A stretch of 64,000 nucleotides of DNA. It comes from Bilabrum cf. latius. Lineage: Eukaryota. Positions 16 through 63,487 of the stretch are shown one piece after another (within the stretch, counting starts at the first letter, position 1; every line of letters starts with the position of its first letter). The stretch spans positions 310,001 through 374,000 of the forward strand of contig OZ237737.1 in the NCBI GenBank assembly GCA_965178125.1. Reading direction: 5' to 3'. Below the pieces are notes generated by a model, which was given only the letters and a program-made list of their open reading frames with translations, had not been told where the DNA came from and did not search any database. Both the position numbers and the translations under genes were made by a program.

Positions 16-2229
16 TCAGATCTGCTCATGGTCAGAGTCCTCCTCGGGACCCTCATCGTGCGACTCGTCCACCTCCGCCTCCAATCCCGCGCTGTTCTCA
101 TCAGCAATCGCATCCTCCAAAACATCCTCCCTTTCAATGCCCTCCATCTCCTCCAGGCTCGAGACACCCCCGGCAGGATCTGCTCCCTCGACCTCCGAGC
201 CGTCGTCGGCAAGCCTCGCATTGCCGCTTGCGTCATGACCTCTGCCCTAGTCGCCTTCCTTGCCATCTGCTCCCCCCGCGCCCGCTTCGCCGTTCATGGA
301 GCTGCGCATCCCTTCCACCGCTGCCTGGAACTAGTCAAGCTGCCAGCTCGGCCCAACCTCAAAATCGTCGTCCATGATACTGAGCTGCTCCAGCTCACTC
401 ACGAGGTGCTCTTTCTCCACTGTATTCAACAAGAGTGCCGCGTCGATCTTGTCCGCTGCACGGACCAGCAACTCAGCTGCTGCCTCAGCAAAGTCTTCCT
501 CCAGTATGCCTTCCGTGATTCCGTCGCTGAGACAACTGATAGTCCCGAGCTGGAAGGCTTCCCTGTACGACTCCACCGGCATGGTCGAAAGGTAGTTGGC
601 GACAACGAATGTGGCCTCTTTGCGAACGCTCGGATCCTCCTCTTTCTCTCTGACGATTTCAATCGCGGCCTGCAGGGCACCCTCGTCCACCAGCTGGTGG
701 GCCTGCTCGGGGGTCCCGGCAGCAACATTGCTCAGCGCCCACATTGACTCACGTCGCAAGGATACCTGCGGGTAGCCCATGCATTTCATCAGCAGGTCGA
801 TGGCGCCGTGCTGCAGGGCGGCATTAGTAGGCTCAACGTTGCCTGACACCAGATCGGAAACGAATCTCTGCATCGCGGTGATCACCTATCGCGGCGGACC
901 CGCTCCCGAGCTATCACTGCCGCCACTGGAGGAACCCGATCGCCCGGACGAGGACCCGGCCTTGGATCCCGCTCGAGCAGAAGCGGGGTTCACCTCTCCG
1001 TACTGGTCGAAGAGGGCCTGCATGCAGCCCATCAGGGCCTGGTGCAGCCCAGCCTCGATCACAGCCTCTATCTGCTTCTCGTCATTGTCGTTTTGAACGA
1101 GGTACTTGCAGGCCCAAACGACATCTGAGAGCATCTCCGTGTCCAGTGGTCGTCTTCTGCACAGCCCAGCCAGGGTTGTGGCGATCGGCAGGACATGTTC
1201 AAGAGGACGGCTAGGTCTAGCCCTGCGTAATATGCTGAGTAGGGCACTAGCAGGGCACTATAATATGCATTGATTCCCGTACGACTTCGTTCGGAGCACA
1301 TTGAGTCTAGCTGATTTCTGTACAAGCATGGCTCGAAGCAACTGATGGCGCGGACGGGTGTACCGTAGTCAAATACAAAATGAAACCCACCTGCACATGT
1401 TGGACAGCGCCCATGATGCATTTCGCAGCACATTTGTGGAGGCATCTGGATTATTCAGCAAGGCCAGCAGTGGAGGCAGCGCGCCGTCTTCCACGAGGCG
1501 GTCATGCGCCTCGACCCCGTCGCCCGCGAGATTGCCCACCGCCCACGCGCACTGCTCCTGGACCTCAGCGTGCGGGTTGCGCATTCCGTCGATGAGAGAC
1601 GTGGCTGCACCCGACTCCATGATGGCTGCGGAGTTCTCCGAATCACCGCTGGCGATGTTGGTGAGCGCCCATGCCGCCTCGAACTGCTGCCTTGGGTTGG
1701 TATCGTCGCGCAGCAGCTCAACGAGCAGAGGGATAGCGCCCAGTCTGCACGTCTCTTTGACGGGCGGGCTGTCTACTGCGTGGCAGCTGAGGCATTCGAG
1801 CATGGGCGTGGACTGTCCTGGCCTCGTTCGCCGCCTTCGAGTATAAGGTAGAACTAGCAGCGCTAGCACACTCGCATCGCACGTAGCACCTTCTTACCTA
1901 CGCTCAGCAATCGCCGGATATCATGGACGGCTTGCAATAGAATTTGCGGGTCGCTGCATACTCGTAGTGTGGAAACCAACATTGGCAGCAAGTCAACCTG
2001 CTCGAACAAGGCACATGAAAGACGCACTGAGGGATAAGATATCAAGCAACTTCAGTCCCTTTCCGGCAATCAACTCGAGAGAGATCAAAGGTGTTGTAGA
2101 CGTGTCGTGCGTGAGACCAGCAAACCTGCGATGCAACCAGCTGTGCAAGCTCACAGAAAGCTCGCCCTCCTTCGGCGGCTCCAGGCCCTCAGGCAGTGGA
2201 AGCTCAGATACTGTATCCTAGGATGCCAT
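16..2229 (-). CDS. Importin alpha-like ARM-repeat protein, 4 exons, acidic C-terminal tail
   Basis: ARM motifs [59 protein letters not shown]. Predicted exons 2229-2155, 1997-1898, 1775-1391, 1222-16 with GT..CAG introns that keep frame. Four in-frame TAG (e.g. 886-888, 331-333). Ends TGA at 16-18. Confidence 0.85.
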
Positions 2230-2352
2230 ATACTGCTCTTTGGTTATACTTGAGGAAATTTTGCGTGGTTTTATCCGGAACGTTCGTCAGTGGCTGAAGA
2301 GGTGCTTGAGCGAGAGATCGCATTTCCGTCCCGATCTGTGGACCGTAGATTC

Positions 2353-4356
2353 ATGAATTTTATGGATAGGGTGCAATGTCGTGTGGATCATGCTGTTGGC
2401 GCTGCGGCCGTCGCTGCAGCGGCTGCTTCTGTGGCCTTTCTAGCCAAACCCCTTTACCAATTGCGGGGATTGTTCGCTGGGACGACTAGATTTGATCTGC
2501 CCGAATTGTGGAACCTGATTGCGGTCGTTACGCTCTTCGCATGGATAACGTGGCTCGTAGCATTGTCGTGGAGCCCCATGATTCACGACAGAACCCACGT
2601 GAAGCGAAGCCTACACGACAGAGACCAGGATGTCCATGCCAAACGTCGCGTTGGCAAGGGATTGCCCCCCGCATATCCAGACGGTTGGAGATGCGTGTGT
2701 TTATCCCACGAGCTGAAGCACGGGTGCCATCGAAGCGTCACCATTTGCGGGAAGAACGTTGTGGTGTATCGGCCGGAGGACGGTAATCTAGGATCCTCCG
2801 GGCCTGTGTGCTTGTCGGCGTACTGCTCGCATCTCGGTGCACATATCGGTGCGGGAGGAAAGGTCGTTGGCTGCTAGATGGAGTGCCCCTTCCACCAGTG
2901 GAGATTCGGGCCCGATGGGTCTGTGCAGTACACTCCCGCTCACGCAGAGGGCAGGGACAGGCTACCAGGAAAAGCAGCGCGGATCAAGTCGTACCCGTGC
3001 ATCGACAGGAATGGACTTGTGCTTGTCTGGTTCAGCTGCTTGCATGCTACGGACGAATCCATGCTCAAGGAGGCCATGCAGCTGGCCGACAAGATGCAGC
3101 AGAGCGCCCACCAGGCGAGCTCGCCACAGCCCGGCGCAGCCACTGCCAGGGCCAGCCTGCACCTCGAGTCCAAGGAGCGCGAGGATCAAGACAATGACGG
3201 TGCAAGGGCAGCAGGTGGTGATAGCTCATCCGGATCCCTTGCGGTGGTCAGGGAGGGGGCAGTGGTGGTGGCAGGGGAGGGAGCAGTGGTGGTGGCAGGG
3301 GAGGGGGCCGGGGCAGGCCAGCAGAAGCAGAGGCTTCGGAGCGCACGAGTCCTGACAATCGCCGAGTCCATTGCTGCCAGCAGGGAAGCCGCCCAAGGAA
3401 CAAGGTGGGGGGACCCTAGGGAACACCCGCTTCCCCCGTGGTTCGAAGTGCCCGTGCACCCCGCCATGGAGGCAGGTGATTGGGTCTTCCATGGGAGCAC
3501 CTCCCACATCATTGACGCGCATGCGTGCGAAATGCCGGAGAACGGCGCGGACGCCGCTCACCTTGGTTGCCTCCACAAGGACTTCGTGTTCCCTGCGGTG
3601 GGCTTGTTCCTCGAGCACGGGTGGGACGCCACGTGGAAGGGACAGCCCGCCAAGGTGTCCGCTGGCAAGTACCGCGGGCGATTGAACGAGCAAACGGCGG
3701 GATCCAGCACGGATGGAGGTAGGGGAGATCGCGGCGCCATCAGCAGAAGTGCTGGATCGGGCAGCGTGGACCGGGGGAGCCAAATGCAGTCGTCCATAAC
3801 TCGGGTGAGGCAGGAGTGGTCCAGCGACCTTCCCTCCCAGGGAACAAACCCAGCCCCGTGTGACGAGAGCGGCAAGCCAGGCGGGCCCACGGAGGGGCTA
3901 TTCAGCAGCAGCATCAGCATCGACGAGAGCATGCGATTGGCCCGGTGGCTGGGCGGCGCCCGGCTGCCTCTCGGCGGCGTCAAGGTGCACGTGCAGCAGT
4001 GCGGTCCCGCCGTCGTGTTCCTCAACATGGAGACGGACCTGGGTCCGCTCGTGGTGGTGGAGACCGTGCTGACCATCGCTCCGCTGAAGCAGCTGGTGCG
4101 GCACTCGCTCTTTGCCCCGCCAGCCATCCCCCGGCTCTTCGCCCGCTTCGTGCTGGATGCGACAGCCACGCAGTTCGAGCGCGACATGGAGGTGTGGGCC
4201 AACAAGAGGTATGAGCCCAAGCCGGTGTACACCAAATCGGACCCGTACATTCGCCAGTTTCGGTCATGGTACCGCCATTTCTTCCGGTACGGTTGCTCGA
4301 CCTTTGCCGAGGTGTGGCAGGAGGAGCAGAGCTAGGGGGTGTCGCTCGAGTGGTGA
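2353..4356 (+). CDS. nvd: Rieske-type cholesterol 7-desaturase (Neverland/DAF-36 family)
   Basis: N-terminal TM segment, LPPAYPDGW, Rieske motif CSHLGAH...GC[TAG]MECPFH, iron motif ENGADAAHLGCLH, QFERDMEVWANK. Reading through TAG 2875-2877 completes the Rieske motif. Reading through TAG 4333-4335 gives the family-typical C-terminus ...SLEW-TGA. Confidence 0.9.
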
Positions 4357-4611: not shown

Positions 4612-7600
4612 ATGCTGCATTTGGCGTTGGCCCTCTAGATCGTACTAGTTGCGATCTTTGCACGCGCCGAGGTGAACGTCTCCTGGTGGGAGAACGGTGC
4701 GTTTGGAGGGAGTCCCGCGCACAGCAGTATCATTCCCGTCCCTTGTATTGGGCAAGGATGCTCTGGGAAGCAGCCGTTGATTGCTTTGCAGAGGGCAGCG
4801 ACGGTGCGATTGCTCGGGAGTATCCTGCAGCAACCACAACGGGCTGGATGGATCCACTTCGCCGTCTAGTGCAACGCCGGCACCCGGCTTTGGATTGACG
4901 ATCACATGCTCATTGATACAACAACCGGAACATTTGCCAACGCCAGCGAGGGGAGCTATCCGCAAATGCAGGTGGGCTTCGTCCCGGTCCCGATCGAAGT
5001 CGGGCCTGCCTTGCTGCGAGCTGAAATCCGCACGGGTGAAACATACGATACCAGCTTTGCTCTATTGTGGAACAACTCGGCTGACGGGAGCTTCTAGGCC
5101 ATCCCTGCGAACTAGCTCCAGTCTTCGGTGCCGGACTACGAGCACGAAAGGATCGGCCTGCTGGACGCGATGCGCAACCAGGGAGGATGGGGAACGCACA
5201 GGGACCAAAGCGCCCTCGATTACGTGCTGCTTCCCGAGTCGTTCGTCCTGCACACGGGTCTGCGGGACACGGAGACTGGCAAGACGCTCGAGGGCAACGT
5301 CGCCCCGACGCCCGCCGACAAGGGGCTGCGTTTGAGGCCGATTGCGCACAGCTACAACGCTACGGGCGAGGGCGGGTTCTACTCCAAGCTGGAGCTCTCT
5401 CTTTGGAATGACAAGAATTGCACCGTCACCGCGGAGGCATCGGCGCCTAGAGTCCCCTCTGCCAGTGGGTTTGAATCAGGCAGCACCATTTCGGATGTAG
5501 ATGCAAGCTCCCAGTGGCAGTGGCGCGGGGCCGCAGGGCTGCACCTCGTCGTTGCATACACGGCCACTGGGAGCGACTGCGCCACCATGCAGCTTATGGC
5601 ACGAGGCGACGTTCTATACGGCCGCACCGGATCCTTCAGAACTGTGGCAGCACCTGACGAGGCCGGGGCGCATGTGAACCCGATGGCCCGCCCTGGCATA
5701 AGCCATGCCACACAACCCCGAGATGCGGCCGATCCTGCGGTACTGTGGGCCACATCAACCCAGCCGCAGCTCGCATCCATTCGATACTATGCATCCAGTC
5801 GCCCCGAGTCCAACGGGACAAACCCTATAGGTGCGCCATCGAACCAGTCGTGCGCGGAGGGGTTCGTCTGCTGGTCACTGGCTGGCAGGAGCACATCCTC
5901 CGGCGCGCTGGTGCTGCAGGCCAACAACGGCAGTGCCGCCGATGCGGCCACGGCACTATCCATGCTTGAAGATTCTGCGAAGGCCGTGCAATCCACTGTG
6001 GATGAGCTGCCGAGCCGATGGCGGGACGCTTACGATGCCATGCGCACCGTGATCAGCTTCAACACCATCTACCACCCGAACGCAGGGATGATAACGCCCG
6101 TGGCGCGCGGGTGGGCGCTGCACAATCCCGCAGGATTCATTCTCTTTGACTGGGACAACATTTTCCTTTCGCTCATGGCGTCCCGCGATAACAAGGAAAT
6201 CGCCTATGCCAACGCCATCGCCATCATCCAGTCCAGGACGCCGAATGGATTCGTGCCCAACTGGGCTGGATCGCTGAAGACATCCGCCGACAGGACAGAG
6301 CCCATCGTGGGTGCCAGAGCGGTGAAGGAAATCTACGACAAATATCAAGAGGATTGGTTCGTCAAGAAGGTGTTCCCAAGCCTTCTGAGCTGGGTCCGAT
6401 GGGCCGTCCGCAGACGCACTGGCGTCGCCTCCATGCCCGGACTACTTGTCCTCGGGTCTGACCCGAACCCTGGATGCACAGAGAAAGTGAACAACCTGCA
6501 AGGCGCCAGGTTCGAATCTGGACTGGACAACAGCCCCATGTACGACAGCCCTCCGGTCGAGTACAACACCACCACGCACCACATGCAGCTGTTCGACGTG
6601 GGCATGACCTCCCTCCTCATCTCCGACCTGCAGGCTCTTATATGGCTGGCTCGGGGACCGGCCGATCGTCCGGACGTGGCAGCTGAGCTGCAAGGCATGT
6701 ACGACAACGCTTCGAGGTGGATTGATTCGCACATGTGGAACGACACAGCGGACCTCTGGCTAAATCGTCGCTTCGATGGCTCGGGCTCCGACTTGGGCGC
6801 GTATGACCGGCGTTCGCCGACGCTGCTCTACCCCTTGATCGGTGGCGCGGCGTCCGCAAAACAAGCAGCGCTGGCTTGCCAAAACCATGCGGCCAGTCCT
6901 CTCGAGTTCAACCTCGTCGCTGCAACAGCATCCGATAGGCTTCGAGTGGCTACCGGGTCCGGTGCCGGAGCCGAAGTCTTCGCAGTGCCACTGCAGCGAG
7001 TCAACGTCACGGCGGGGAAGGGCGGGCCAGCCGTCGGGACGGATGTGATGGCGCTGCCAAAGTCCATCGGGCTAGCAATTCGGAACAACGGATCCTTTGT
7101 CGGGCTGGAGGGGTTCCTGCTAGAGGCTGCCAGCGACGGAACAGCACCCGTCGGGGTTGGGGGCAAGCCCGAGGCCCTTGTGCGGTTCGTCAGGGGTCCT
7201 GTGCCATCGAGGGAAATTGCAGACTCCAGTATGCCGGCAGACTTTGCGACGTTGACGCGAAGTGCGGCCAAATAGATGCTGGTGGACGGCACATGGCGAG
7301 AGCTGGGTGTAGAGGCGTACTGCATCGGAGTGCCAGCCACGAACGAGCGGATTGTTGCTCTCCGTGTGCTGCAAGGCAAAGGCTCCGACGGCCGAAGCCT
7401 GTTTGCTACATGTGGCACTGATAGTTGCGTGCAGCAGCACGAGTCCATGGGGTACAGGCAGGTGATCGAGAGCATGTGCCACGCGGTGGCGGCCACGGCG
7501 CCCGATGGCCTCGGCTCCACAGAGGTCCAGGTCGGAGGGTTCGGACCCATGCCGTCGATCGCCCGAAACGACTCTGCGTTCACGGATAACGCGTACTGGA

Positions 7601-7872
7601 GGGGACGCATCTGGGGTCCCATGGTGCAGCTCACGTGGTGGGGCTTCAACAACGACAAGTACAGGGACGTGCCTGCAGTGCAGCAGGCCAAGCGCTCGAT
7701 CGCGGAGCAGGCAAGGTACTGGCTGCTGGTGATGTGGCAGGCAGACAACAAGGTCATGGAGAATTACAACGGAGAGCATGGGTGGTCCGTGGATGTGGGA
7801 GATGCCAACCCGTTCTACCACTGGGGCGCCCTAAACGCTTGGGTGGGCTTGCGCACGAACGGACTGGCCTGA
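4612..7872 (+). CDS. Secreted GH63-like glycoside hydrolase with N-terminal PA14-like segment (~1086 aa)
   Basis: Signal peptide MLHLALAL[TAG]IVLVAIFARA. Motifs ILFDWDNIF, DRTEP, ARFESGLDNSPMYD, YWRGRIWGPM, ENYNG, PFYHWGAL. One frame joined across 5 TAG (4636, 4867, 5095, 5113, 7273). Ends TGA. Confidence 0.8.
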
Positions 7873-7975: not shown

Positions 7976-10900
7976 TCAGTCTCCTTGCAGGTCTACGTAG
8001 CCTATTGCATCGATTGCGCTGCGGATGGAGTTCCACGTTGCCGTTACGCGCCCTTGTGCACCATGGATCGCACCACCTGCACAGCCCGCGATCGATCCCA
8101 TGAGCTTGCCAGCATGCGAGGCCGTCTAGTTGCCGCCGACGCAGGCAGGCTCCAGCCGCTGCCACGTATCCAGCAGCTGCACAGTGACCCTGTCGCTGCC
8201 ATCGGAGCTCCCGTGATCTGGCACGTCACCGAACGGCCAATGCCTGCACCAGTGCCGGGACTGCGAGTCTACCACAATGACAGGAGCAGGCGAAACGATC
8301 CGGACCAGGTCAACCAGTGCGTGTGGATCAGAGCTCGCTTCGTTCATGTCTCCCCACGCAACAACTGCGATTCCACTGGCTGGCCACAGTGCAGACAAGA
8401 GGTCTTCGACTGGGCGATTGATGCTCCCGCCGTCCCCCAACGCAAACTGCCTGAGCCTCTTTGCGTTTTCTTTTTTGTCCATGCTGGCACCAGATCCGCC
8501 AGCAAGCACCGCTGCAAGCTTCTGCCGCACTGCGCAGCTCAACCAGTCTGCGAACCTTTCTCCTATAGCCGCGCCATCCCAGTCAGATCCGTGCGTGACA
8601 TTGCCAGCTCTGACGTCCTGCAGCCTGTGAAGCTCAGCTCCAACGCTGGCAGGCAGGCTAGCAGGATACACATCAAAGGCATCGTCGTCTGGATACGCCG
8701 GTCCACCACTGCTCACCAGCTCTGGCTTGTGCCCGAGAACACTCTCCAGGTTTCGTACAGCCGTCGGCATGCTGTTCGCATGAGGGTCGCCAGAGGCAAG
8801 TACACTCTCCGACACTGTTCCGTTTGAGAGTTCAACATCCGTTGACGGCATGGGGCTGTGCAAGTGGGGTGGCAGCATGTGTTCAGGCAGATCGAAGCTC
8901 TGCAGGTGCTGGTGGCGGCGGACAGACCACGTGAAGCGATGCAGAGCTCGACGGGTGCTACCTGCCACGGATCGTGCAGCGGCATACGCCATGCATTCAC
9001 TGAGCACGGTACGATCGGTGGACTGCGGCAGCTACTTGAAATCTCCTGCGTCGTCTAGCACTCCACCGTGAATCAGCTCGCTCGTCTGCAACCCTGCCAA
9101 GCCGCTCTCAATACCTAACACTGGAGCTTGCAGTAGATCACTGCGGTGATCAGGATCAACCACACTTGAGGCTTTGCCCCCTTCAACATAGTCGGCAGTC
9201 CCTGCAATCAGCCGCAGGGCCCGTCGTCTTGGCTCCCCGGTCAGCGCTTGACGCATGACCACCGCGAGCTTGGAATCGGGCTCCATGCGTGCTCGAGCGG
9301 CCGCCTTGGCCTTGACAAGGACGCTGAGACCCGCGTGCACCGCGCGAGCTACCTGCTTCCCGAAGGCGTCCATTTCCAGGAACTGCGCATTGAAGTCTTC
9401 GGTGACGTGTGCCTCCATCACCATTGTGGGTGCCTGCGACACTGGAGCGGGGAAGCTGGCAGATGCTGCCGGACGGTCCCTGTCGACACCTGCACGCATC
9501 CACGCGCTAGCATCCCTGTCGTCGTGCACCATGCCCTGCTCGTGTCCCTCCGCGCGAGCCTAGGACCGCATCGCGCCCTCACGCAGCTCGTTGTAGTAGC
9601 TGCCGGGATACGCCGAGCCCTCGCTTTCAATGTGTGGAAGTTCCGTCTGTCCGCCGTGCCTCCCGGACACGTACACGCGAATCACCGGGTGCAAGAAACG
9701 ACCTTGCGTCGGGTCATCGTCGCTGAAGAAGGCGCGGCGCAAGGACAGCACGTCGGTTTGGTCGTGCTTCGAGTCTGCGCGCTTGGCGCCCTCCCCATAG
9801 TCGAGAGATACCGTGGCGTACACAGCGAACCCAGAAGGTGTATTGCCTGCGTCTGTGGAGGCTCTGCACCTCGCGACTCTTCCTGCTGTCCTCCTATCAC
9901 GCTGCTCCTTGTGCTGCGCCGCGGAGCACCTAACGGCCTTGCTGCACGCCTGCAGCTGGTGGGACCACCTCCTCGCCAGCTTGTGCACCTCCCCCTTGGG
10001 TACCTCTTCCATGTAGAAGCCACCCGATGACTCCCTCAGCTGTCCTGGCATGCGGTTGATGTACTCTGGCGTGTCTGGGTCTCCCTCTGGTCCCCAGATC
10101 CGATGCCGATCGGGCTCCGGCTCCCTTCGCGTTCGAAATCCGTTCTTGACCGTCCGGTACCCGCCCACCTGGGCCACGTCTGGTTTGAGATCTCCCTTCA
10201 AGTGTGCAAGCAACTGATTCGCCAGCTCTGGTCGACACGTCTTCTGCAGGGCAGCCTCAGGATAGTCGCCCTGGGCAAGCGCAGCCAAGGTCTGGACCAC
10301 ATGCCTCTGCGGGCCGTCCCAGTTGCTGGCGCTGCGGCCCCACAGCTGGCTGTCGAGGTCAAGGAGCACGACATCTTGCAGCTGGCCAAACATCTGATAC
10401 AGGCCAGAACCCACGAGCAGCCTACGCTTGATTGCATACAGTATGGAGTCGAACCCTTGCAGCCGCATGCGAGGCCAAGCCTGCGGCGAGTGCTCTGCTT
10501 CCTCCTGCATGACCCGGTCCTGGGCCCGAATCAGGTACCTAAACCCATGAACAAACCCACCACTTGCTACCCTCCAGTCCGCTGCATGCATAAGAGTACC
10601 AGCAAAGCGTATGCCCGCGTGTATCGGGCTCTGAAAGGCGCCGTTCATCGTGGGATACTTGCCCGAAGGCACGATTGGCGGGTACTCCTTTCTGCCCATC
10701 GGAGATAGAAACGACCCGGAGGCGCCATCTTGTTGCGCTTTCGATGGGACAGTTTGCGCTGGCCAAGCGAGGTCTTCTCTGACCGTGCTGCTCACCTCCG
10801 CTCGGCTGTCCCCTGCAACTAGCGTGGGGTTATCGTCAGGTTCGCTTGCAGCCGCATCCTGCCCTGCAGCGAGTTTGCTGGCCCCTGGCGGTACCTCATC

Positions 10901-12400
10901 TTCCTTAAGAGGTGCTGGTACCTACTACCTAGGCAAGACGTGCATTGGATCCGTGGCAGCTGCGTCCAGGTGCTCCCCGCCAGCGGCAGGCGCAGCTCGC
11001 CCAGCATTGCGGATCGACCGAGCCAGAGATAATCGCCTCCTCCAGCCCACCAGCCCGCCCATGCCCAGATTCAGACCCCCTCGCTGAAACGGGCCGTCAT
11101 CAAACTTCCATCCAAGGCATAGCACCACAGTATCGTACTCAAGCAGGTCGGCCGAAGGCTCCCCGTCAGCACACGATCCCTGCCCATCGACCATCAGGGT
11201 CAGCTTCTTGCTCCTTGGGTCCTTGCATAGAAAGCTGGCGTTCAGAGGCGCCTCCAGCATACCGTCCTGGATCTTGAGCATGTACGTCTCAATCAGCGCC
11301 GCGTGAGTCATCCTCACGTCCCCCGGGTAGTGCGTCTCCCACGCGAGCCTGGCTCTTGCCGAGTCCCTGCCTATTACGTGCACCTGTCTCGCTCGACGGA
11401 GGGCGTTGTCAGCCACCTCGAAGGCTGCGTTGCCGCGGCCAACGATGAGGACCGACCGTCCCTCGAAGTCCGCTGGGTCACCGCTCAGCTCGTCGTACCT
11501 CGTCCCGTGCTGCTCGAGGCCTCGCAGCGAAGGGTGCACCGAGCCCTTGCTCAGGCCACTGGCCACGATCAAGTGGCGGCACACGAACCGGCGAGTGGAC
11601 GGGTGCACGCCCTCAACTGTCGTGCTGAGGTTCACCGCCGTGGAGCGGTCCAGGATCACCTCATACCTGGGGCGCCAGAGGAGGCCTTGCTGCCGCGCCA
11701 TGCTGCCTGCCTCGGTCGCGTTCAGTGGGCGGACGAGGTGGACGGGAGCACCAAACACGACGCGCAGCCCAAACCTCTGCCTAAACGCATCGATGTACGC
11801 CGCTAGATCGTCGGCGCTGGGATAGAATTCCCTGCTAAAGTGCCGCATCTCGAGCGGTGGTGCGGCCAAGCCTTCGGCAACCGTCCCGTCCCAGCGCAGC
11901 AGTCCTAGCGCCCGGGAATCTGGACTGTGATTCTGATGCTGGCGCGCTGGGTCCCTGAGTAATCCATCCAGCCTTGAGTACGCAGGCGAAAAACTGTCCA
12001 GATTCCTTGATGCGTCCATGTCGAACGTGAAGGAGTGGCTTAGTTGCTCCGCACCAGTCCGACTGCCAAGCGGAATATCCTGCAACAGCGAGTTCCAGTC
12101 GTGTCTGAGTCGGAATTCGTGTTCATTCCTCGAAGTGAAGCGCTTATTGATGCTAATAAGCTTCCTGAATTTGGGGTAGTCGCGGAAGAAGGAGCCAGAC
12201 TCGTGTGATCGCTCTAAGACAATGTACTCGCGGTTAGACTGATGCAGATAAAAGCCTGTCTAGATTCCTGCTGGTCCAGATCCGAGAATAACATTTTTTG
12301 AGTAGAATGATGGCTGCCCAGCGTCTGATTCAGTCTTGCCGGCAACTGCTGCAGAAACAAAAGACAGGGCCAGCAGGCCCACGGCAGCGCTCCACTACAT
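7976..12400 (-). CDS. FOXRED2: FAD-dependent oxidoreductase FOXRED2-like with long C-terminal extension (~1474 aa)
   Basis: Signal peptide, then VILGSGPAGI[TAG]TGFYL, GSFFRDYPKFRKLISINKR, RHDWNSLL, VGRGNAAFE, LAWETHYPGDVR, GGFVHGFRYLIR, GLYQMFG, FLHPV. One frame across 7 TAG. Ends TGA 7976-7978. Confidence 0.88.
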
Positions 12401-12889
12401 GCAGCTTAGCGTCAGGTGGATTTTAGATTCCTCCGCCTAGAAAAGCATTTGAGCGAAGATGTATCCGTGCTGTTTGCACCACAAACCTCCGCGGAACGAT
12501 TCTGACGTCGGTTGCAACCTGGGTTTCGAAATTGAAGAAGAAGATACAGCAGCCACAACCCTGGGACATCAAGCTCGTTCGGTGACCCGAGTCGATGGGC
12601 TGCTTGCAGGCATCGCCCCGCAGGCTAGTCTCCCGGCCTCAGGCTGGCAGTGGGGCTGCATTGGACCAATCAGGCCACCCACCCCCTTTGAACCTCTGGT
12701 GTGGGACGCGCCTGAGGTCACGAGGTTGCTTCATGCATTTGCGGGCTTCGCTGGCCGCAACATGGTACCGGTGGCATAGTCTCCGTGGCAGCGCCTCGGT
12801 AGCATGTGAAGATCGCCTCGGCCTAGATCTCGTACAGGTGTGGTGCGAGCGGGAGCGAGGTACAGGAGAAAAGTCTGTGATTCAATCAA

Positions 12890-53700: not shown

Positions 53701-56700
53701 ACATGGAGGGAACAAGTGGAGGAGGTTGAGGTGCACGCATTGCGAAAAGCTGCCATGAAGCTGGGAACGTGGCGCGAACCGCCGCCCGATGCCAACCGGC
53801 TTCGTTTCGTGCGGCGGGTGGTCGTTCCGGCTGTGCCGATGGTGGATCTTCGGCTGGCACTGAACATTCGGGGCCTGCCGGCGAACGACCTGACTGCGAA
53901 CAATCGAACGTCGGTTCTTGCGGTCAGGATGAAGCTTCTTGAGTGGCTCGGCACTGCGCTAGAGGTAGAGGAGGAAGTGGAGCGCAGGATCGAGGGGGGT
54001 GCCAGTAGTGCCAGCGCGACATCTGCTGAGAGAAAAGAGGATGGTAGCAGCACTGGAATCGATGATTTTTCAATGGACGATTCTCCGCCTGCAGTGATCC
54101 CGCTGGGTGGATGGGCAGCCTTTGACCAGCGAAAGTGGAAGATGTTCAGAAGACGAGAGAAGGAGTGCACGGAGAACGATGAGAAATTGAGGAGGGGTGA
54201 GACTGGTGGTATCCTCGGGTACATCACCGGCACCACGACTGCGGCTCTCGCGCAGAACGCGATGGAGATCACATCGGGAATCTGGCGGCCCCTCCGGCGG
54301 TCATGGGACTTGAGGCTGTGGTGGAAGCGCGAGGCCGCCATACGGATGCGAGAGAAGGACGATCGGCTTGACGACAGGGCATACGCAGAAATGAGGGCGC
54401 AGCTAGCCCGCGTGTGCGTGGCTGTGGCGGGCACAAAAGCAGACAGCGAACATGCTGCCAGAGCTAGGCGAGCGGGGGTGCCTCCTTGGTTTGCCCCCGG
54501 CGTGGTGGACAGGCTGCTGGCAGACGCAGAGCCGGAGCAGGGCGACAAGCTCAAAGATATGGTCAGCCCCACGGTACCATCGCAGGCAGGGCTGTCTGGA
54601 GCAACGGCCGCCGGTGTGGGCGGATGGGAGACAGTAGAAAGGCTTCACGATTATGCCGCGGATCTGGGCGTCAAGGGTGCGCTGTCGGTGAGCGAGGGCA
54701 GCAAGCGGGAATTCCCAAAAGCAGCCGGTAGCACCGGCGCTCAGACGCAGGAACTGGCCCTGTTCGCGGCTCGCGAAGGTCCCGACGATGCGTACGAGAG
54801 CAGACAAGCCGCCGTGCCGCTACTGTCTAGTGGAAAGACTCTCACGTCGATCCCCATCGGCAGCTTGGACGTGGGAGGACCCGCCAAGTTGCCCAGCGAC
54901 CTTGGGACCGAGTCTGTACTGGCAATGGCCGGGGTTGAGGCAGCTGCCGAGGACAAAGATGCCGAGGCTGCTGCGAGTGCCAAGAGTAAGAAGCAGACAC
55001 TCGGAGAGATACCCAGCTCTCCGATGGGCAGATCTTCGACAGCGACGTCAGGGGCTTTTCGCGGCCTGAATTCAGCGGGCGGAGGCAGTGAGTAGCAGCA
55101 GGCAAAACGGCGCGCCGATGCCGCAAGTAAGACCAAGCAAAGGAGGCTGCGCCGACTGCGGGCGCTACTGCAGGAGCGCACCACTTCGAAGCAGCCCATC
55201 CTGCTTCCGGCCCGAGTATACGACGTGGATTGCGGCGCCGCCCACATCGGAGCGGCGGACGAGTGGCAGGGTTGCATGACCTGGGGCGACGCGCGCACGG
55301 GTCGGCTGGGCCTGGGAGTGGACCCCTCTCGGCTCGCTGCGTTTCAGCGGGAAGTTCACGTCGGCACCGCTGCCAGCGGTCCAACGGCACAGCCCGCTCA
55401 GAAGCACAAGAGCGGCCTGGCCATGCTGGAGGACGCTCCACCAGGCTCTGCACGAAGCGGCACGGCATCTTTGCAGGGCAACAGGGCTGGTTCAGGGGGC
55501 CGGCTTAGCGACGCGGAATCGAAGGCATCGTCGAGCCCGGCCAAGGATGAGGACTATGAGGCCCAGCCATGGCCCACGACAGTGTTCTTGTCGGACGAGC
55601 GCAAGGCCGGGGGCGGCTTGATCTCCAGGAGCGCGCGGCAACCGCACGCCATCCGTTCCCTGTCGCTTGGGTACGGACACACAGCAGTTGTCACGGCCGA
55701 GGGAGAGGCGTGGGTGTGGGGAGATGCCTCCCAGGGAGCACTAGGGCTCGGTGTGACCCCGGAGGGAGGCCTGCGTGCCAGTCGCTGGCCGGGCGCCCGG
55801 CCCGTCCTGATCCCGCTCTTGCACGACGACAGGATGCCCACACGGGCTGGAAATAGAGGCGGCGCCCCCCGCAGGTATGATCCACCTCGGACCCCGTTGG
55901 CCATCATGGCAGCCCCAAGAGCCACTGCGTCTAGAGGCAGCCTCCCAGGCAGTGGAGGACTGCCCCCACGTGCATAGGCCGAGGCCTCTCAGCTGATGGA
56001 GGTTGCGAAGCGGGCCAAGGGCAAGCAGGGTCTGCTACAGCTCATGGAGTCGGCAGACCAAGAGCTGCAGAGCACTCGCCATGGCAGTGAAGGAATGTTC
56101 CGTGCGGAACACACGCTGGGAATGTCTCACCACGGGCAGCATGCAGCGATCAGCCCTGGATCCCCAGCATCGCCGAGGGGCAACGCGACGGCGTACAGCC
56201 CAGGACAGCTCGACACACCAGGAAACATGAGCGTTACGGGTGCCGGGAATCTTTCTCGGCAGCAGCTGGCGCTGCGGTCTACTGCCGGGCGCGGTGGTAG
56301 TGCAAGGGGTGGGCCGCTGGACAGGCTATCCACACCTCTTGGCATCGCGACTAGCTCAGTGGCCAGGGGTGCGGTTCCCCGTGTCACCACGAGTCGCGGG
56401 CACGAGTACCAGCACCAGGGCGGGCCCGGTTCCGTGCGGGCCGCTGTATCAAGAGAGACGCCAGCCGCAGACTTGCTAGCGGTGGCTAGGACTGGCACGC
56501 CCGCCACGCCTGGCGTCCCGCGGCACATCGCACCCTTGGCCCAGGCAGCATCCGGAGCGGGCGGCTCGCCCTCCTTCGCACAGGATAGGCGCACTGCCCT
56601 CGGCCGCGAGCTGACTGCACTGCACGATGGCTCGCCCAGGCTGGAAGGAAGCGAGTACGCTCACCGCGCCATGGTGGTGGCCCGGGACGAGCAGAGGCTC

Positions 56701-59637
56701 GCGGGGCTCCGAGGGGAGCAGCTGCCTGGGTTCAGCAGGCGCGGCACGAGGTCATCAGGGGACCGCGGATCTGCCGCGCTGGTGTCTCGGGGACTGGGCA
56801 CGGCGGCCGGTAGATTCAGGAGTGGGACCGCTCTGGCGGTGCAGGGCCCCGACGATGAGCAGCACGGGATTGGTGGGGTGGATGGGGTGCAGCAGCAGGA
56901 GAGCATCCGGAGGCTGACGGTGGGAGGCGCCGAGACTCGCGCAGAGGCGCACAGAGCTGCGACTGCTCTGAGCGGAGTGATGGTGCCCGTGCCCGTGCGG
57001 CTACGGTTGCCCGCAGGTTTTGGTCGGAGCCCGATCAGGCAGGTGGCGTGCGGTGCCGCCCACACGGCCATCGTCACGGAGAGCGGGCACCTGTTCGTCT
57101 GCGGGTCGGGCGCGGGCGGCAGGCTTGGACTAGGAGCGAAAGTCCTCCCTGCAGTTGTTCCCCACCCAGTGCTGGTGGAGGCTCTGGCGCGGGCTGGAGT
57201 TCGGATCGTAGAGGCGAGCTGCGGCATGGAGAGCACGCTGGTGCGGTCAGAGCTCGTGTACAATGACATCGTGGGAGGCGGGGCGGTCAAGGACGCGGGG
57301 GTTAATGACGAGGCCAGCGAGCCTGCAGACCCATTTGATTCGCCCAGGACCGCCGCCCCTGGCAACGAATCGGCTCGATCCGTGCGTCCCGTGCACACCG
57401 ACCCGGAGCTGGCCGGTGCCCAGAAGCTCGACCCGAGAGGACTCTTCGGGGAAGTAGAGGGCGGCGCCGTGTACGCGACAGGAGTTCGATGGGCACTAGG
57501 GGAACACGCTTCCCAGGAGTTCAAGCGAGTCGCCGGACTGCCCCCGGCTCGACAAGTGTGCGCCGGTGCTTCGCACCAGGCTGTGGTGACAGCGGCAGGG
57601 GAGCTGTGGACGTGGGGCGAGAACGACAAGGGAGCAGCGGGCCACCCACGGGGCAAGAAGTTTCTGCCTACGCCGAAACGTGTGCGGGCGCTGCACAAGG
57701 CCCCTAGAAACCTCGCTCTGGGGCAGCCATGTCGGCAGTCCAGCACCTACGCCCAGAGGCACGCCTTCCTCGCCGTCGATGGCACCATCAAGGGCGAAAG
57801 CGTGAGACACTGCGCGTGGACGCAGCGCGAGGACGAGCCTTGGTTGGAGGTTGATCTGGGAAGGGACTGCTACGTGTCGGCCGTGGAAGTGTACGTGCAC
57901 CATGGCACCCGGGCCAGCTGGATCGGCGGCGGTGGCATGGATGCTACGGGAGAGCTTGGATCCTCCTCCTCACGCTCACTGCAAGAGCCAGGCAGGCAGA
58001 CGGCGGCCGGCATGCGGACCATGTCCGCCGGTGGGTTGGGTCAGGACGGCGCGGAGAGCGTCGTCTCGCTCGTGTCGGACGACGGCATTGAGGCCGGGCG
58101 CCCCAGCTCGCGCGCCGGCACGGTCACCACTCGCTAGCTGCGGGAGGCGATGGCATCAAGGGGCTACGTGTCGGCCGGTATCGCGACAACTGCAGGGACA
58201 TCCAGGTCCTAGGGAACACACGGACCCCTGGATGAGACGGACGCTCCCAGGCCCGTTGGTGGCCCCGCCGCTCGCACCGACGCGACCTCGCGCCGCTTCC
58301 TGCCGCTGCACGTGCTCCTGGCGAGGCAGGATCGGCCGTTTCCTGCGGTGATTGGAAAAGGGACGCTTCGCGTTTCCAAGGAAGTTGCCGTCGCCTCCTG
58401 CACTCACACCAGCGGGAGGAGGCTGCTCAGCTGGCAGCCTCCCCCCATGACGAGGGCCCGGTTCATGCGAGTCGTGCTCGACAAGAACGAGCACCTCGCG
58501 GTGGCACAGGTCAGGGTGCTGGGCACGTCCTCGAGGCAGCCGCCCAGGATGCCGGTGCGTCACGTCAGCTGCGGACGGGCAGCAATGTCTGTCGTCACTG
58601 CGGCCCGCACCGACAATGAGACGCTGCTGACTCACTACCGACGCGCGATCGCAGCGGACCCGCGGGCTGCGAAGCTGCTGCGTCGTATACCTGCGTACGC
58701 TCCGTTTTTTGACGTGTACGGCGACAACTACCTCCCGATCGATGCCAGGGAACAAGACGAGGAGAGCAGAAGGCCGCCCTCGCCGAGAGAGGCGCGCCGG
58801 CGGCAGCAGCGCGCCATGCGTGCGGCCCAGCGTGACAGACGGAAGCGATACATGAAGGAGATCGAGAAGAACGCGAGGATCGTGGGCAAGAGGGGCCAGG
58901 GCCGCAGGGAGCGCCGGTTGCTGCAGAGGCAGGCCGTGTCCAAGCAGATGCGGGCCTTGGACGAGGAGATGCAAAAGGAGAAAGAAGCGGGGCTGTACGA
59001 CGTGGACGATACGCTCGGCGATTCCGGGTGGAGGGGAGAGGCGCTAAGGTCAGCCAAGGAGCTCCTCGCGAGACAGGACTGCGCCATGGACCCTGCGGCC
59101 AACAACTGTCCCCTGTGCGAGCCCAAGAAGCGGTGCGCGTCCTGCGAGTTTCACCTCAAGTGGGTGCAGCCGTTCGCGCTGCGATCCTTCCACAGGCAGC
59201 TGAGGCGCAGGGCGCAGCATGACAAGGAGGACAACCAGATGCTGGTCGATGCCGCGGAGCTGAAGGCGAAGCAGGCAGCTGAGGCCGCGGCACGGGCTGC
59301 TGCAGGCAGAACGTCAGTAGAGGAACGAGACCATGAGGCCACAGACGGGGCAGAGGCAGCAAAGGGCGGGGCCGGAGAGGGGGAAGAAGCCTCTGGTGAC
59401 GGGGCTGGTGACCCGGTGGTCGAGGAGGCCCTGAAGGGAAGGGTGGAGCTGCCTCCGTACAGGCGGTGGCAGCTGCAAGACGTCCTTCGCGCAGTGCTGG
59501 TGGAGGAAGCTGACGACGAGGGCGTGTCTCAGCTGGAGACGCTGCTACAGCGGGCCGCTGTGACCGGCCGGGCAATGGCCCCTGAGGGATTGCAGGAACA
59601 CGAGAAGTCTCGGGGCGGGAAGCGGCAGCGCGATTAA
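50761..59637 (+). CDS. Giant EF-hand + RCC1-repeat + fucolectin/F5-8-like domain protein (~2958 aa)
   Basis: Four EF-hand loops (DTDGDGVLDMGE, DLDDDGFLSQDE, DSS[TAG]RGALDEVE, DADKSGLLEYEE). RCC1 repeats (VACGAAHTAIVTESGHLFVCGSGAGGRLGLG). NLALGQPCRQSST...AVDG...PWLEVDLG. About 13 TAG in one frame. Ends TAA. The start could be an upstream in-frame ATG such as 50692. Confidence 0.8.
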
Positions 59638-59759: not shown

Positions 59760-60410
59760 TTAGCTTCCGACGCCCTCAGCCTTGCCCTCGTCACCGGCTG
59801 CCTTCCCCGCTGCTGCCTCGGCCTTCGAAGATACAGCACCTGAAGCTAAAACACTGGTTTTTTTTGGCTTCAAATCCTTTCTGTAGAACCAAAACTCAAC
59901 GCCTGACCGAGACAAGCCTTCAGGAGGTATTGAGTGCGGACCAACCCCAGTCTTCTCGAATCCATGCTTGGAGTAAAACGGAGGCAAATCAGTCCGAAAG
60001 TTCACAATCTCCATAGTGAGAGCACTACGACCACGTGATAATACCTCCTATTCAAGCCTAGCGAGCAGGCTGGAGCCTAGCCCCCTGCCTTGGAGCTTTG
60101 GGTCCACAGCGAACGGTCCGAATCGCATGGCTGATGCATCCGCCTTGTCAGGGTAAAACACGACACAGCCCACCAGTTTACGGTGAATATCCAACTCAAC
60201 AATCATTTCGCCCTTCAATATGTGCTACCTAATCGCATCATGCTGGGCATCGTTGAAAAGTCTGTCTCTTGTCTTGAATGCAACACCGGTTGAGCCAGTT
60301 TCGATACCATAAGCCAAGTTAATCAGCTTGCAGGCAGAATCGTAGTCATCTTCAGCAGCTAGTCGGAAAATGAGCTCTGATTCTGTGACTTTCTCGCTTG
60401 TAGCGGCCAT
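59760..60410 (-). CDS. GNAT-family N-acetyltransferase (~216 aa)
   Basis: LINLAY, FGPFAVDPKLQGRGLGSSLL (acetyl-CoA motif A), VNFRTDLPPFYSKHGF. TAG at 60225 and 60048. Ends TAA. Confidence 0.88.
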
Positions 60411-60547
60411 ATAGCACAACTGCAACAGCGCTAGCCGAAAGGTTCGTAACGAATGTTCTTCTGCCAGTGATAACGAGCACTTTCAAGTTGGGTTGGCGCG
60501 AAGGTCAACCGACCTTAACCCCCCGGGCCAGTTGCGCCGTTCACAGG

Positions 60548-63487
60548 ATGCAGAGCGAAGACGATGCAGTTTCTAAAGGTAGATTAATATCTCAATGGGT
60601 GCAGAAGATGAAGGCAGGGGAAATAACGCAAGCAGAGCTGATTGAGATCATGCGAAAGCAAGTGGCCAGCAAGCCCAGCCAGTCCGGGCAAAGCGCTCCG
60701 CAACAGCAATCCCAGCCGCCGAGCGAATCACACGGACATAGTGGTATTGCGGTAGATTTGCAGGCTAGGCAGCCAATCCCTTCGCCATCCGGTCAGCAAG
60801 GTGGCCTGCTTGACCCGGACGAGGATCAAGCACCACAGCGCACCTCGGCCCCCGCCGCCCGGCTCACGCCAGCAGAGGCGGAAAGAAAAACTATGATTTA
60901 GGTTAGATAGTCAGACGCAGCTCGTTTCACTGAGTATTAATTGCACAATTTACGCTGTACGTGTTGCGCAACGGTTTGTGCGTACCGCAACAGACACCCT
61001 TGTATCACATAATATAGAACGTTTGCATCGCAGCGACTCGTCGAATAGCAGCGAAGGGCACGAGCCGAGGCAGATAGGCACAGAGAATAGCTTGCTAGAG
61101 CAGATGCGTCCCGCCCGGCCCAGCCACCTGCTGTGCCGCAGTACGAGCAGCCACGTTCATTCGCCCCCTCGAGAAGCGAGCAGCTAGGTAGGTCCTCAGA
61201 TGCTTCAAGGAGATCAAATGTGCAAGCTCCTATGATTCCGGGCGGACGAGTCGCCTTGGAATCCGCAGGTTCGTCGGGCGAGCGAGCAGGTGCGCCGACC
61301 GGCGAGCGAGCATCCGAGCAAGTGCCCCGGCAGAGCATCGTCACCATGGACCCCGTCTCGAGAGCTGCAGCGGCAGCACGCGCGAGAGACGCGGCAATCG
61401 CAGCTGCCTAGAGAAAGGAAGTGTCCCCAGCGAGGGGGGGCTACAGCCAGGGCCAGTACGGCCAGGGCCAGGCGTACGCAACTCCGGGGCACCATAGCCA
61501 ACAGCAGTACGGAGGCAGCGGCATCAGCGGTAACGCAGCCGGGCATGATCCCTCCGGTGGCGATCTTCCGTCGACGGGGCAGGGACAGGGGCAGGCTAGC
61601 CGGCGGTCCGCCAGCGCACCACGAGGCAGCCGCTCCGCCCTGCGGTCTCGTGCCAGGGACGAGGCCGAGCAGGCGGCCAGGGAACAGCGCGAGCGGGAGC
61701 TGGAGGAGTGCACCTTCCGGCCGCAGACCCGGCGCCTGCCCTCCCAGTACGGCAGCAGCCGTCGGGCCTTGGAGAGCGTGCCCTTTGCCGAGAGGATGGA
61801 GCAGTGGAAGAGGCACAAGGTGCAAGAGTCGGAGAGGAGGAAGAAGGAAGAGGAGGACAGGGAGGTCTCCAAGTGCACCTTCCAGCCGAGGATTTCCGCC
61901 GTGTCGCGCAAGACGGTCGCGCGGCAGAGGCAGATGGGCGGGGCTGTGCCCGCGCACGAGAGGCTCTACAGGAGCGTGACCCCGGCCAGGGCGCTCAAGA
62001 TGAAGACGCCATCCAGCGCGAGGGGCATGGTCGGGGCCCAGACCTCTTTTTCCTCCAGGCACGGTGGTCAAACCGGCCCCTATGGCGGCGTTTCCTCTGC
62101 ATCGGGTGCGGGTCTGCAGCAGCAGCAACAGGGCTTGGAGCACACGGCCTCGCGCGCACGCCCCGACTACAAGACCATGGAGGAGCGTGAGCTGGAGCAG
62201 TGCACCTTCCAACCGCAGACCAACCCGAAGCTAAGCAGGCGATCGGCGCACCCTGTTCGGTCCAGGTTCCGCCAAGCCGCCAAGGCGAGGTCGCTGGGCG
62301 TGCAGCTGGGCAAGCCCAAGTACACCGGCGCGGAGGAATGCACCTTCGCGCCCCGGGTGAACCCCGTGTCCAAGGCGATGGCGAATGCGCGCAAGTACGT
62401 GGAGAAGCCGGTGTTCGAGCGGATGAGCGAGCGCGCGAGGGCGGGCGCAGGGAACAGTAACGGGCGGTCGCAGTCCGCGCCCAGGGCGCGGCGCGGCCCC
62501 GCTGCCGAGGCCCGCGCCATGGGGGGTGCGGGAGGGGGTGGCGCGTCGACGCTGGGCGGGTACGACGAAGGTGCGGGTGGCGCGTCAGGTCAGCTGGACG
62601 ACTCGCGGTTCGGCTCCGTTGGCGGGTCAACGATGGGGGCCGGCGGGAGCATGCGGCGGGGGCGTCGCAGCGAGGGCGGAGACCAGAGCCGCGTGATGGA
62701 CCTGAGCAGCTTCCGCCGGGCCATGGACGGGGGCGGGGTCGGCGACCTGGAGGGCAAAGAGGAGGACGGGGGAAGGGAAGGCAAAGCCAGCCCGCGCACT
62801 GCCGCCGAGCGCAAGAAGAGGTTTAAGCAGTTCTTGCAGCGGCAGAACCACACATTGGCGAGGAAGGCGAAAAGCGTGCAGCTGCTCAAGGAGCAGACCG
62901 CCGCGCCGCACCAGCCCAGGCTGTGCCGACGGTCCGTCGAGATGGTGTCCGCCGAAACCCACGGAACGTTCCTCGAGAGGATGGCCAAGAAGGCCGTCCT
63001 CAGGGAACACGCCAACCAGCAGGAGCGGGCCAGGGTGGCCAAATCGGCGGACTGCACCTTCGAGCCAAAGATCAACCGGCACTCCAAGCAGATGCCCCGA
63101 CGCTCCTACGCAGAGATGTCCCGGGGAGACGCCCTCAAGCGGGAGACGGCGCAGCGCCTGATGAAACTCAAGTTGGAGCAGGACGAAATCGGGCAGTTCG
63201 AGTTCGCCCCCAAGATCAACGACAAGAGCAGGCAGGCCCAAGGCAAGCTGCGCGTACTGGACGACCCGGAGACGTACGTGGAGAGGGTCCACAGGGAACA
63301 AGCCATACAGGCGGAGAGGGCCAGGCAGCAGGCTCTGCAGGCCGAGTCCACCGAGTATGACGAGTGCACGTTCAAACCGGAAGTGCACGACGCCCCGGAG
63401 TACATCAAGCGCATCGCCAAGACAATGGCTCTCACGCGGGCCGCGAGGCCGCCCAGCCCCTCCGAGCAGAACCCGCGCTGGAGATGA
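60548..63487 (+). CDS. CTFxP-repeat protein of unknown function, 2 exons
   Basis: Exon 60548-60901, intron 60902-61033 (GTTAG..CGCAG), exon 61034-63487. Six CTFxP motifs plus FEFAP. Four TAG. Ends TGA. Confidence 0.75.

Follow-up and report, generated by a model that had tools for sequence, protein, structure and literature searches.

Evidence that UAG is a glutamine codon, with UAA and UGA kept as stops, in a 64 kb stretch of Bilabrum cf. latius, a GC-rich stramenopile placed near the bicosoecids

What does the triplet UAG mean in the nuclear genes of Bilabrum cf. latius? The question is raised by a stretch of 64,000 nucleotides from this eukaryote (positions 310,001 to 374,000 of the forward strand of contig OZ237737.1, assembly GCA_965178125.1; the whole stretch is called the window below, and coordinates count from its first letter), in which genes on both strands are interrupted by in-frame TAG codons. 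A sequence-only reading of the window had counted about 100 such codons in 18 genes and had proposed that UAG encodes glutamine (Gln) here and that UAA is kept as a stop. This proposal is supported by the residues found in homologue columns at TAG positions, by close relatives, by paralogues, by an orthologous locus and by spliced RNA contigs, and we consider it highly probable that UAG is a glutamine codon in this organism, with UGA and UAA as stops. The resulting code equals NCBI translation table 15, with which the genes of the window read open with Gln at TAG.

When both strands of the window (G+C 57-67% along its length, about 61% overall) were read with the standard code, the longest stop-to-stop open reading frame (ORF) had 719 codons. 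Taking TAG alone as sense gave stop-to-stop ORFs of 3054, 2634, 1530, 1248, 1108 and 1069 codons, and taking TAA alone as sense left the maximum unchanged at 719 codons. With TGA alone as sense the maximum was only 1002 codons, a general lengthening such as would follow from opening the most frequent stop triplet of GC-rich DNA, and this candidate was rejected. Across 16 ATG-to-stop ORFs on both strands (16,835 codons, TAG read as sense) we counted 94 in-frame TAG, 560 CAG and 125 CAA codons; one of them, a second copy of the 3' end of the ECM29 gene, contains no TAG and was left out of the frame comparison, which was thus made on 15 genes with 16,381 codons. Their frame 0 contains 94 TAG, 0 TAA and 0 TGA, frame 1 contains 109, 40 and 236, and frame 2 contains 103, 41 and 289, respectively. 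As the ORFs are bounded by TAA or TGA, the frame-0 zeros for these two triplets are built in and the real test is ORF length: because the off-frame density of TAA and TGA is ~1.7% per codon, a chance origin of frames of 2,600-3,000 codons free of both is impossible. Outside the long ORFs, further TAG codons were present in the spliced frame of the prefoldin-4 gene (3), in the exon for the mitochondrial ribosomal protein bL17m (at least 1) and in a GNAT acetyltransferase gene (2), which brings the total to ~100 in-frame TAG in ~18 genes and thereby bears out the earlier count. Most of the products could be assigned to Pfam families, namely Arm, Rieske/KshA_C, MGH1-like GH, Pyr_redox_3 (FOXRED2-like), ATP-synt_ab, Sec1 (VPS45), C2H2, APH+ACAD, ECM29, WD40, Exo5, EF-hand+RCC1, Tmemb_14 (TMEM14) and GNAT.

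The amino acid that corresponds to UAG was assessed from alignments in which TAG was written as X in the queries, so that the alignments carry no query bias. Homologue sets were used for an ACAD10/11-like protein (n=120), the first 760 residues of a FOXRED2-like protein (n=120) and the first 1200 residues of ECM29 (n=64). Among the 20 TAG columns examined in these three proteins, the 13 with at least 5 aligned residues were used, with sequence weights and pseudocounts; the 7 columns with fewer than 5 (FOXRED2 codons 4, 508 and 509; ECM29 codons 9, 437, 975 and 1071) were left out. The log-odds summed over the 13 columns were +8.81 for Q, followed by A (-2.61), R (-3.28), H (-5.15) and K (-5.47), with lower values for E (-7.01), S (-7.81), L (-8.43) and W (-19.48). 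Over the 1,877 columns of the same alignments the mean Gln frequency was 0.226 where the query itself has CAG or CAA and between 0.001 and 0.056 at the columns of every other residue, as compared with 0.222 at the TAG columns. None of 5000 random sets of 13 columns reached the value of 8.81 for Q, and in a control of the method the true residue was recovered in 155-200 of 200 resamplings per amino acid.

Two of these columns are nearly invariant: the TAG of GPAGI[TAG]TGF in the FOXRED2-like protein is aligned to Q in 117/117 homologues, and that of AAIL[TAG]GV in the ACAD10/11-like protein to Q in 112/120. Likewise, human EXO5, for which a structure has been solved, has Q (in QVSLY) opposite the TAG of [TAG]VDTY. 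At TD[TAG]LV of bL17m, Q is found in the two best-matching mitochondrial L17 structures and S in the next three, which are bacterial, and human PFDN4 places the first Q of EDQQ opposite a TAG of the prefoldin-4 exon, in an alignment that is weak (E = 1.5, below chance matches to SMC3). The column at V[TAG]VPV of ECM29 (codon 76) is mixed, with K 17, Q 15 and R 5 of 45, and at ECM29 codon 701 nine of 33 residues are Q and seven are K. All six TAG codons that the sequence-only reading had singled out are correctly located (12260-12262 in the FOXRED2-like gene, 23677-23679 in the ACAD10/11-like gene, 49400-49402 in Exo5, 13421-13423 in prefoldin-4, 39148-39150 in ECM29 and 42175-42177 in bL17m). 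Its claim that they sit at conserved Gln positions is confirmed for FOXRED2, ACAD10/11 and EXO5 and agrees with the human residue for prefoldin-4, subject to the weakness of that alignment; for bL17, where it had been worded as probable, it fits the two mitochondrial matches and not the three bacterial ones, and for ECM29 the position stands and the column is mixed.

Similar results were obtained with sequences much closer to the window. ECM29-like fragments of close relatives (52-86% identical) have Gln at 5 of the 6 TAG sites that they cover, i.e., at codon 975 (P0241 and P0242), codon 1071 (P0242), codon 701 (P0245) and codon 118 (P0244). The fragment P0241, which is 86% identical to ECM29, stops directly before TAG codon 1071, as expected from standard-code gene calling if that relative has TAG there too. 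Within the window, the acidic low-complexity gene g25855 reads AGG TAG AAC (TAG 26185-26187) where its paralogue g30152 reads CAG CAG CAT; TAG codons 228, 196 and 198 of g25855, which fall in acidic low-complexity stretches with alignment gaps, were excluded from this comparison. In the zinc-finger array, one repeat has TTC GGG TAG GCA AGC (TAG 20504-20506) and the next two repeats, which are the most similar to it, have TTC GGG CAG GCA AGC, the remaining repeats showing GAC, GGG or TGG at this hypervariable position. Furthermore, TAG codons are found within runs of CAG, such as CAG TAG CAG CAG TAG CAG CAG in g25855 and AGC TAG TAG CAG CAG in Exo5. A CAG or CAA neighbour is present at 17/94 TAG codons (0.181), compared with 0.079 overall and 0.114 for CAG itself, an enrichment that is suggestive at most.

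An orthologous locus was available in L001, a metagenome contig of 2,985 bp which carries a VPS45 gene 83% identical to that of the window and, with the same gene order, downstream of the ATP-synt_ab gene. The latter gene ends in AGG TAG TGA in L001 and in AGG CAA TGA in the window, and the TGA positions of both VPS45 and the ATP-synt_ab gene are conserved. Since TAG in L001 stands where the window has CAA, directly before a common TGA, the organism behind L001 seems to use the same code; this use of UAG is apparently common to the window organism and at least one environmental relative.

The presence of the TAG codons in DNA and in transcripts was followed over positions 12000-27999 with aligned contigs of four sequencing runs. 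Contig pieces of the DNA run X3 show no letter differing from the window, and their depth is even across this region. One 10 kb stretch is almost completely contained (0.97 of sampled words) in four runs with a single organism label, which are probably the source of the window. The other three runs, X5, X6 and X7, come from two other studies and contain 0.31-0.69 of the sampled words of this 10 kb stretch; three more runs (X8-X10), with a share of 0.05, were left out of the alignment. Each of them shows four deletions that are absent from X3. Two lie in the prefoldin-4 gene (13083-13176 and 13257-13348) and have CT..AC ends, corresponding to GT..AG on the minus strand, and two lie at the 5' end of VPS45 (17586-17687 and 17739-17870) with GT..AG ends; joining the exons at the observed joints gives open frames in both genes. 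The depth of these contigs varies 50-fold between genes. Because of the splice joints and the uneven depth, X5-X7 were taken as RNA. The TAG codons persist in them: exon 2 of prefoldin-4 (80 nt, with a splice joint on both sides) retains 2 TAG, the X5 records listed cover 24 of the 32 TAG sites in long ORFs of this region with no differing letter, and the ACAD TAG at 23677-23679 is covered by contigs of all three runs, again with no differing letter. A TAG with a changed letter (T>C) occurs only at 26185, in X5 and X6 contigs; the record concerned has 7 gaps and differs at 13 letters, and it matches the paralogue g30152, where CAG stands at that place. The four introns, all short (92-132 nt) and of GT..AG type, are the only ones seen, and genes as long as 9 kb in the rest of the window are apparently free of introns.

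Termination in the window can be explained without TAG. The 16 ORFs end at TGA in 14 cases and at TAA in 2, none needs TAG as a terminator, and g30152 also terminates at TAA. In the ACAD10/11-like protein, the homologue alignment reaches within 7 residues of the TGA. Adding TAA as sense to TAG left 4 of the 6 longest ORFs unchanged and lengthened the other two by 55 and 67 codons. If TAA related to TAG as CAA does to CAG (125:560), ~21 in-frame TAA would be expected in the 16,381 codons and 0 were observed; therefore UAA is still a stop within this sample, in agreement with the sequence-only reading, and a code of the table 6 type, in which both UAA and UAG (UAR) encode Gln, was rejected.

The organism had been described by the sequence-only reading as a Cafeteria-like stramenopile. 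Indeed, the best named matches of the ACAD and VPS45 proteins were from Cafeteria roenbergensis, with 46% and 47% identity, respectively, and the next named VPS45 matches were from Thraustochytrium sp. (43%) and Ochromonas sp. (42%). When 27 VPS45 sequences were placed in a quick maximum-likelihood tree, made with a short search, the query and an environmental relative were sister to Cafeteria (98 in the Shimodaira-Hasegawa-like approximate likelihood ratio test, SH-aLRT). This group fell inside a clade of unnamed sequences (100) and then into a stramenopile clade (94), outside which stood the alveolates Colponema and Tripos, plants, a haptophyte, an apusozoan and a fungus. No 18S gene is present within the window. 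The tree thus supports the placement of the organism as a stramenopile near the bicosoecids (Bigyra), and with only 47% identity in the one gene analyzed this relative would be distant from Cafeteria.

Several observations weigh against the assignment of UAG to glutamine as a plain sense codon, and they are considered here together with the alternatives that they might favor. UAG could be a sense codon for an amino acid other than Gln, e.g., Glu, Lys, Leu, Trp or Tyr, as in other lineages. Three ACAD columns indeed have a majority other than Gln (codon 355, E 79/120; codon 592, A 72/120; codon 919, D 97/120; the samples behind them are mostly vertebrate), K slightly exceeds Q at ECM29 codon 76, and the Rieske TAG column reads S/E/E/T in four solved relatives, being variable and uninformative. 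Moreover, P0244, from a 55%-identical relative, has Pro at ECM29 codon 114, a relative with 42% identity has Glu at codon 701, and in the ECM29 duplicate TGG (Trp) takes the place of the TAG at 31828-31830. However, the summed log-odds are positive for Q and negative for the best alternative, the two near-invariant columns are Gln columns, close relatives have Gln at five of six sites, and TAG alternates with CAG in paralogues and sits in CAG runs, all of which makes a different amino acid highly improbable. Alternatively, the code might be ambiguous, with UAG read as Gln inside genes and still acting as a terminator in some 3'-terminal contexts, a situation known from organisms whose stop/sense codons depend on context. 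This would suit the TAG at codon 648 of g25855 (27796-27798), which stands exactly at the TAA stop of g30152 (31280-31282) and is followed by a 1-nt indel as in untranslated sequence, the TAG directly before TGA in L001, and the TAG that precedes the TGA of the Rieske gene by 6 codons. On the other hand, the final 12 codons of the 16 ORFs contain 2 TAG in total versus ~1 expected (from 94 per 16,835 codons), which is no enrichment, the L001 TAG is aligned to CAA (Gln) ahead of a TGA that is conserved, and no ORF requires TAG as a terminator. As to g25855, a TAA-to-TAG stop-loss with an 11-codon extension accounts for its end equally well, so that this site may represent either such an extension or a hint of UAG termination near some 3' ends. 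A residual stop role of UAG near some gene ends is thus possible, and we regard an ambiguous code as improbable.

A further alternative is that the TAG codons are not translated as written and are due to assembly or sequencing errors, to pseudogene decay or to editing of the mRNA back to CAG. Nothing speaks directly for this; T>C was seen at TAG 26185 in X5 and X6. The RNA nature of X5-X7 was concluded from joints and uneven depth and is not stated in the run records, and contigs are consensus sequences which would hide rare variants. In contrast, the frames are broken by TAG and by neither TAA nor TGA, in ~18 genes including core ones, the X3 DNA contigs agree with the window, T is kept at the covered TAG sites in RNA contigs of three runs, spliced exons included, and the single T>C record matches g30152. 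Assembly error, decay and C-restoring editing are therefore very unlikely, to the point of being nearly dismissible. The contig could also stem from a contaminant belonging to a lineage already known to read UAG as Gln (ciliates or fornicates, for example), and would then not constitute a new occurrence. No observation was found in favor of this other than the mere equality of the code with NCBI table 15, and the placement that speaks against it comes from a single gene, VPS45. Yet the best named matches of two genes point to Cafeteria and then to Thraustochytrium and Ochromonas, the alveolates in the VPS45 tree stand elsewhere, the G+C content stays between 0.57 and 0.67 across the window, and X3 depth is even across the region, so that contamination has hardly any probability. 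Finally, neither the window nor L001 yielded a tRNA gene when scanned, and eRF1 is not among the genes of the window.

Taken with these reservations, the assignment of UAG to glutamine suggests the following picture. The window would be a piece of a nuclear chromosome of a GC-rich, intron-poor stramenopile in which UAG is presumably no longer a stop and serves as an ordinary glutamine codon, with termination probably at UGA, as a rule, or at UAA. Decoding would require a tRNA-Gln with anticodon CUA, pairing with UAG and not with UAA, which could have arisen most simply from tRNA-Gln(CUG) by one anticodon change; a CUA anticodon that reads UAG but not UAA allows UAA to stay a stop, following the reasoning given in PMC11687900. 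The release factor eRF1 would in turn be expected to lack efficient recognition of UAG and to have kept that of UAA and UGA. Both the tRNA-Gln(CUA) and an altered eRF1 are predicted from the code. The decoding of UAG must be efficient, because genes contain up to 13 UAG and leaky read-through would give no useful yields. When paralogues and orthologues are compared, single C/T transitions turn TAG into CAG or the reverse, and TAG codons may mostly be gained and lost by such transitions at CAG. In the long ORFs TAG provides 94 of 760 Gln codons (about 12%), CAG and CAA making up the rest. This share differs mildly from gene to gene (chi-square 25.2, 14 df, p = 0.03; the expected counts are small): none of 29 Gln codons is TAG in VPS45 and 1 of 57 in g61232, compared with 10 of 38 in g25855, and the share reaches 17-26% in the g25855, ACAD10/11-like, coiled-coil and Exo5 genes. 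TAG may be avoided in some genes. VPS45 (17911-19566), which lacks TAG, has the highest RNA contig depth in 12000-27999.

The same change of meaning is known from few other nuclear genomes. In the fornicate Iotanema spirale, UAG encodes Gln and UAA is a stop (Panek et al. 2017, cited in PMC11687900). The window organism resembles it in the codon change itself, in the separate meanings of UAG and UAA and as a free-living heterotrophic flagellate, and differs in lineage, Iotanema belonging to Metamonada and the window organism to the stramenopiles. Among ciliates, a 2024 survey lists Hartmannula sinica and Trochilia petrani, with two independent origins, and Protocruzia tuzeti as reading UAG alone as Gln (McGowan et al. 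2024, PMC11687900), and describes UAA as their preferred stop and the suppressor tRNA as not found in these cases either (PMC11687900). The evidence there, as the survey presents it, is of the same kind as ours, i.e., in-frame UAG at conserved Gln columns, and UAA is likewise kept as a stop. In contrast, TGA ends 14/16 ORFs here, the DNA has ~61% GC and the lineage is unrelated. Codes in which UAA and UAG both mean Gln (table 6 type) are recorded in the same survey for many ciliates, Ulvophyceae, Hexamita, Streblomastix and Amoeboaphelidium (PMC11687900). They share with the window a stop codon captured by glutamine, presumably via a mutated tRNA-Gln; however, UAA is also Gln there, and here in-frame TAA is absent and TAA ends 2/16 ORFs as well as g30152. 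Other reassignments of UAG alone, as given in the survey, are to Leu in an uncultured rhizarian and in TARA phyllopharyngeans and to Ser in Scotinosphaera (PMC11687900). These nuclear codes also uncouple UAG from UAA and differ from that of the window in the amino acid, both Leu and Ser scoring negative in our columns. NCBI translation table 15, the Blepharisma nuclear code which is also used by some phages, is a formal match that is silent on lineage and mechanism. Phages with code 15 have their own suppressor tRNA and act inside a host with the standard code.

The sequence-only reading had supposed that the reassignment is undescribed. In agreement with this, a full-text literature search, with subscription journals and supplementary files outside its scope, found no nuclear stop-codon reassignment in stramenopiles, and the matching papers that were consulted mention only other organisms or the mitochondrial codes of Labyrinthulea; priority is unprovable from the scope searched. 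A published description may exist or be in preparation, as the data sets are from 2025. We class the finding as a known code change with an independent origin in a new major lineage, and we lean slightly towards the view that it represents the first nuclear code change in stramenopiles, i.e., an independent UAG-to-Gln change in a free-living lineage close to the bicosoecids, with GC-rich DNA and termination at TGA. If so, the change would be old enough to be common to environmental relatives at 52-86% protein identity, and the organism, for which both DNA and RNA data sets exist, could become a test system for the uncoupling of UAG and UAA. Nuclear codes in which UAG and UAA differ in meaning are very rare, and the 2024 survey names a single fornicate, a few ciliates, one rhizarian and one green alga (PMC11687900); such codes show that the translation machinery can distinguish the two codons. 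An independent case in another supergroup would be a natural replicate for models of codon capture, of an ambiguous intermediate and of release-factor change, all the more since it contrasts with the ciliate cases in its GC-rich genome and its main stop, TGA rather than TAA. In practice, standard-code gene callers cut the genes of this organism into pieces, and assemblies and metagenome bins of the lineage should therefore be annotated with table 15. The environmental relatives that we encountered (L001 and proteins P0229, P0241-P0245, P0305 and P0441) come from metagenomes and other public assemblies. Their proteins are mostly short predicted fragments, as would be obtained if gene calling with the standard code broke off at TAG, and public databases carry the ECM29 of relatives as fragments of 91-482 residues.

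The genes and gene pieces of the window are compiled in Table 1.

Table 1. Features of the 64,000-nucleotide window, with positions, strand, in-frame TAG codons and ends
Feature	Positions	Strand	Details
Armadillo-repeat protein gene	16..1329	-	4 in-frame TAG, TGA end
Rieske/KshA-like oxygenase gene	2353..4356	+	2 TAG (aa 175, 661), TGA end
MGH1-like glycoside hydrolase gene	4612..7872	+	5 TAG, TGA end
FOXRED2-like flavoprotein gene	7976..12448	-	8 TAG, including 12260-12262 (GPAGI[TAG]TGF)
Prefoldin-4 gene	12880..13465	-	introns 13083-13176, 13257-13348; spliced frame open, 3 TAG
ATP-synt_ab-domain protein gene	13512..17207	+	10 TAG, last codons AGG CAA TGA
VPS45 (Sec1 family) gene	17400..19566	+	introns 17586-17687, 17739-17870; 0 TAG among 29 Gln codons
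C2H2 zinc-finger array gene	19880..21250	+	3 TAG, including 20504-20506
ACAD10/11-like gene (APH + acyl-CoA dehydrogenase, kinase-dehydrogenase fusion)	21823..24882	-	6 TAG, including 23677-23679
Acidic low-complexity protein gene g25855	25855..27834	+	10 TAG, TAA end
ECM29 3'-end duplicate	27905..29684	-	truncated piece, own open frame of 546 codons; TAG kept at 29676-29678
g30152, paralogue of g25855	30152..31282	+	no TAG, TAA end
ECM29 gene (2626 aa)	31495..39375	-	13 TAG
Mitochondrial ribosomal protein bL17m exon	42100..42279	+	TAG at 42175-42177
WD40 protein gene	42800..45046	-	1 TAG, TGA end
Coiled-coil protein gene	45000..47687	+	12 TAG, TGA end
Exonuclease V (Exo5) gene	47915..50221	-	6 TAG, including 49400-49402
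EF-hand + RCC1-repeat giant protein gene (2997 aa)	50644..59637	+	13 TAG, TAA end
GNAT acetyltransferase gene	59760..60425	-	2 TAG
Protein gene without Pfam family (g61232)	61232..63487	+	1 TAG among 57 Gln codons, TGA end

A tandem segmental duplication comprises the blocks 25855-29684 and 30152-33166, each of which consists of an acidic low-complexity gene (g25855 or g30152) followed by an ECM29 3' end on the opposite strand. The two acidic genes are 63% identical in the N-terminal part and 92% identical at the C-terminus, and the ECM29 duplicate is 98.4% identical over 1786 bp to the ECM29 3' end at 31381-33166. The ATP-synt_ab protein has 1231 residues, with a Pfam match to the nucleotide-binding domain at residues 387-547 and long low-complexity tails, and its gene adjoins VPS45 in the window and in L001. 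By eye, its P-loop region reads GQPGQAAS and not GxxxxGK[ST] as in Walker A, and from this sequence the protein may be an inactive or divergent member of the family. A microsatellite of the GCA/GGA type at 43100-43300 encodes (AG)n runs within the WD40 gene, and the His/Gln-rich open frames on its opposite strand are probably not genes. Besides the regions of even depth, X3 contig depth rises in spikes of up to 9,228 over the zinc-finger repeats (20544-21077) and 24,735 over the Asp/Glu-rich tract (26418-26951), which means that these two types of sequence occur in very many copies, be it within the genome or within the sample.

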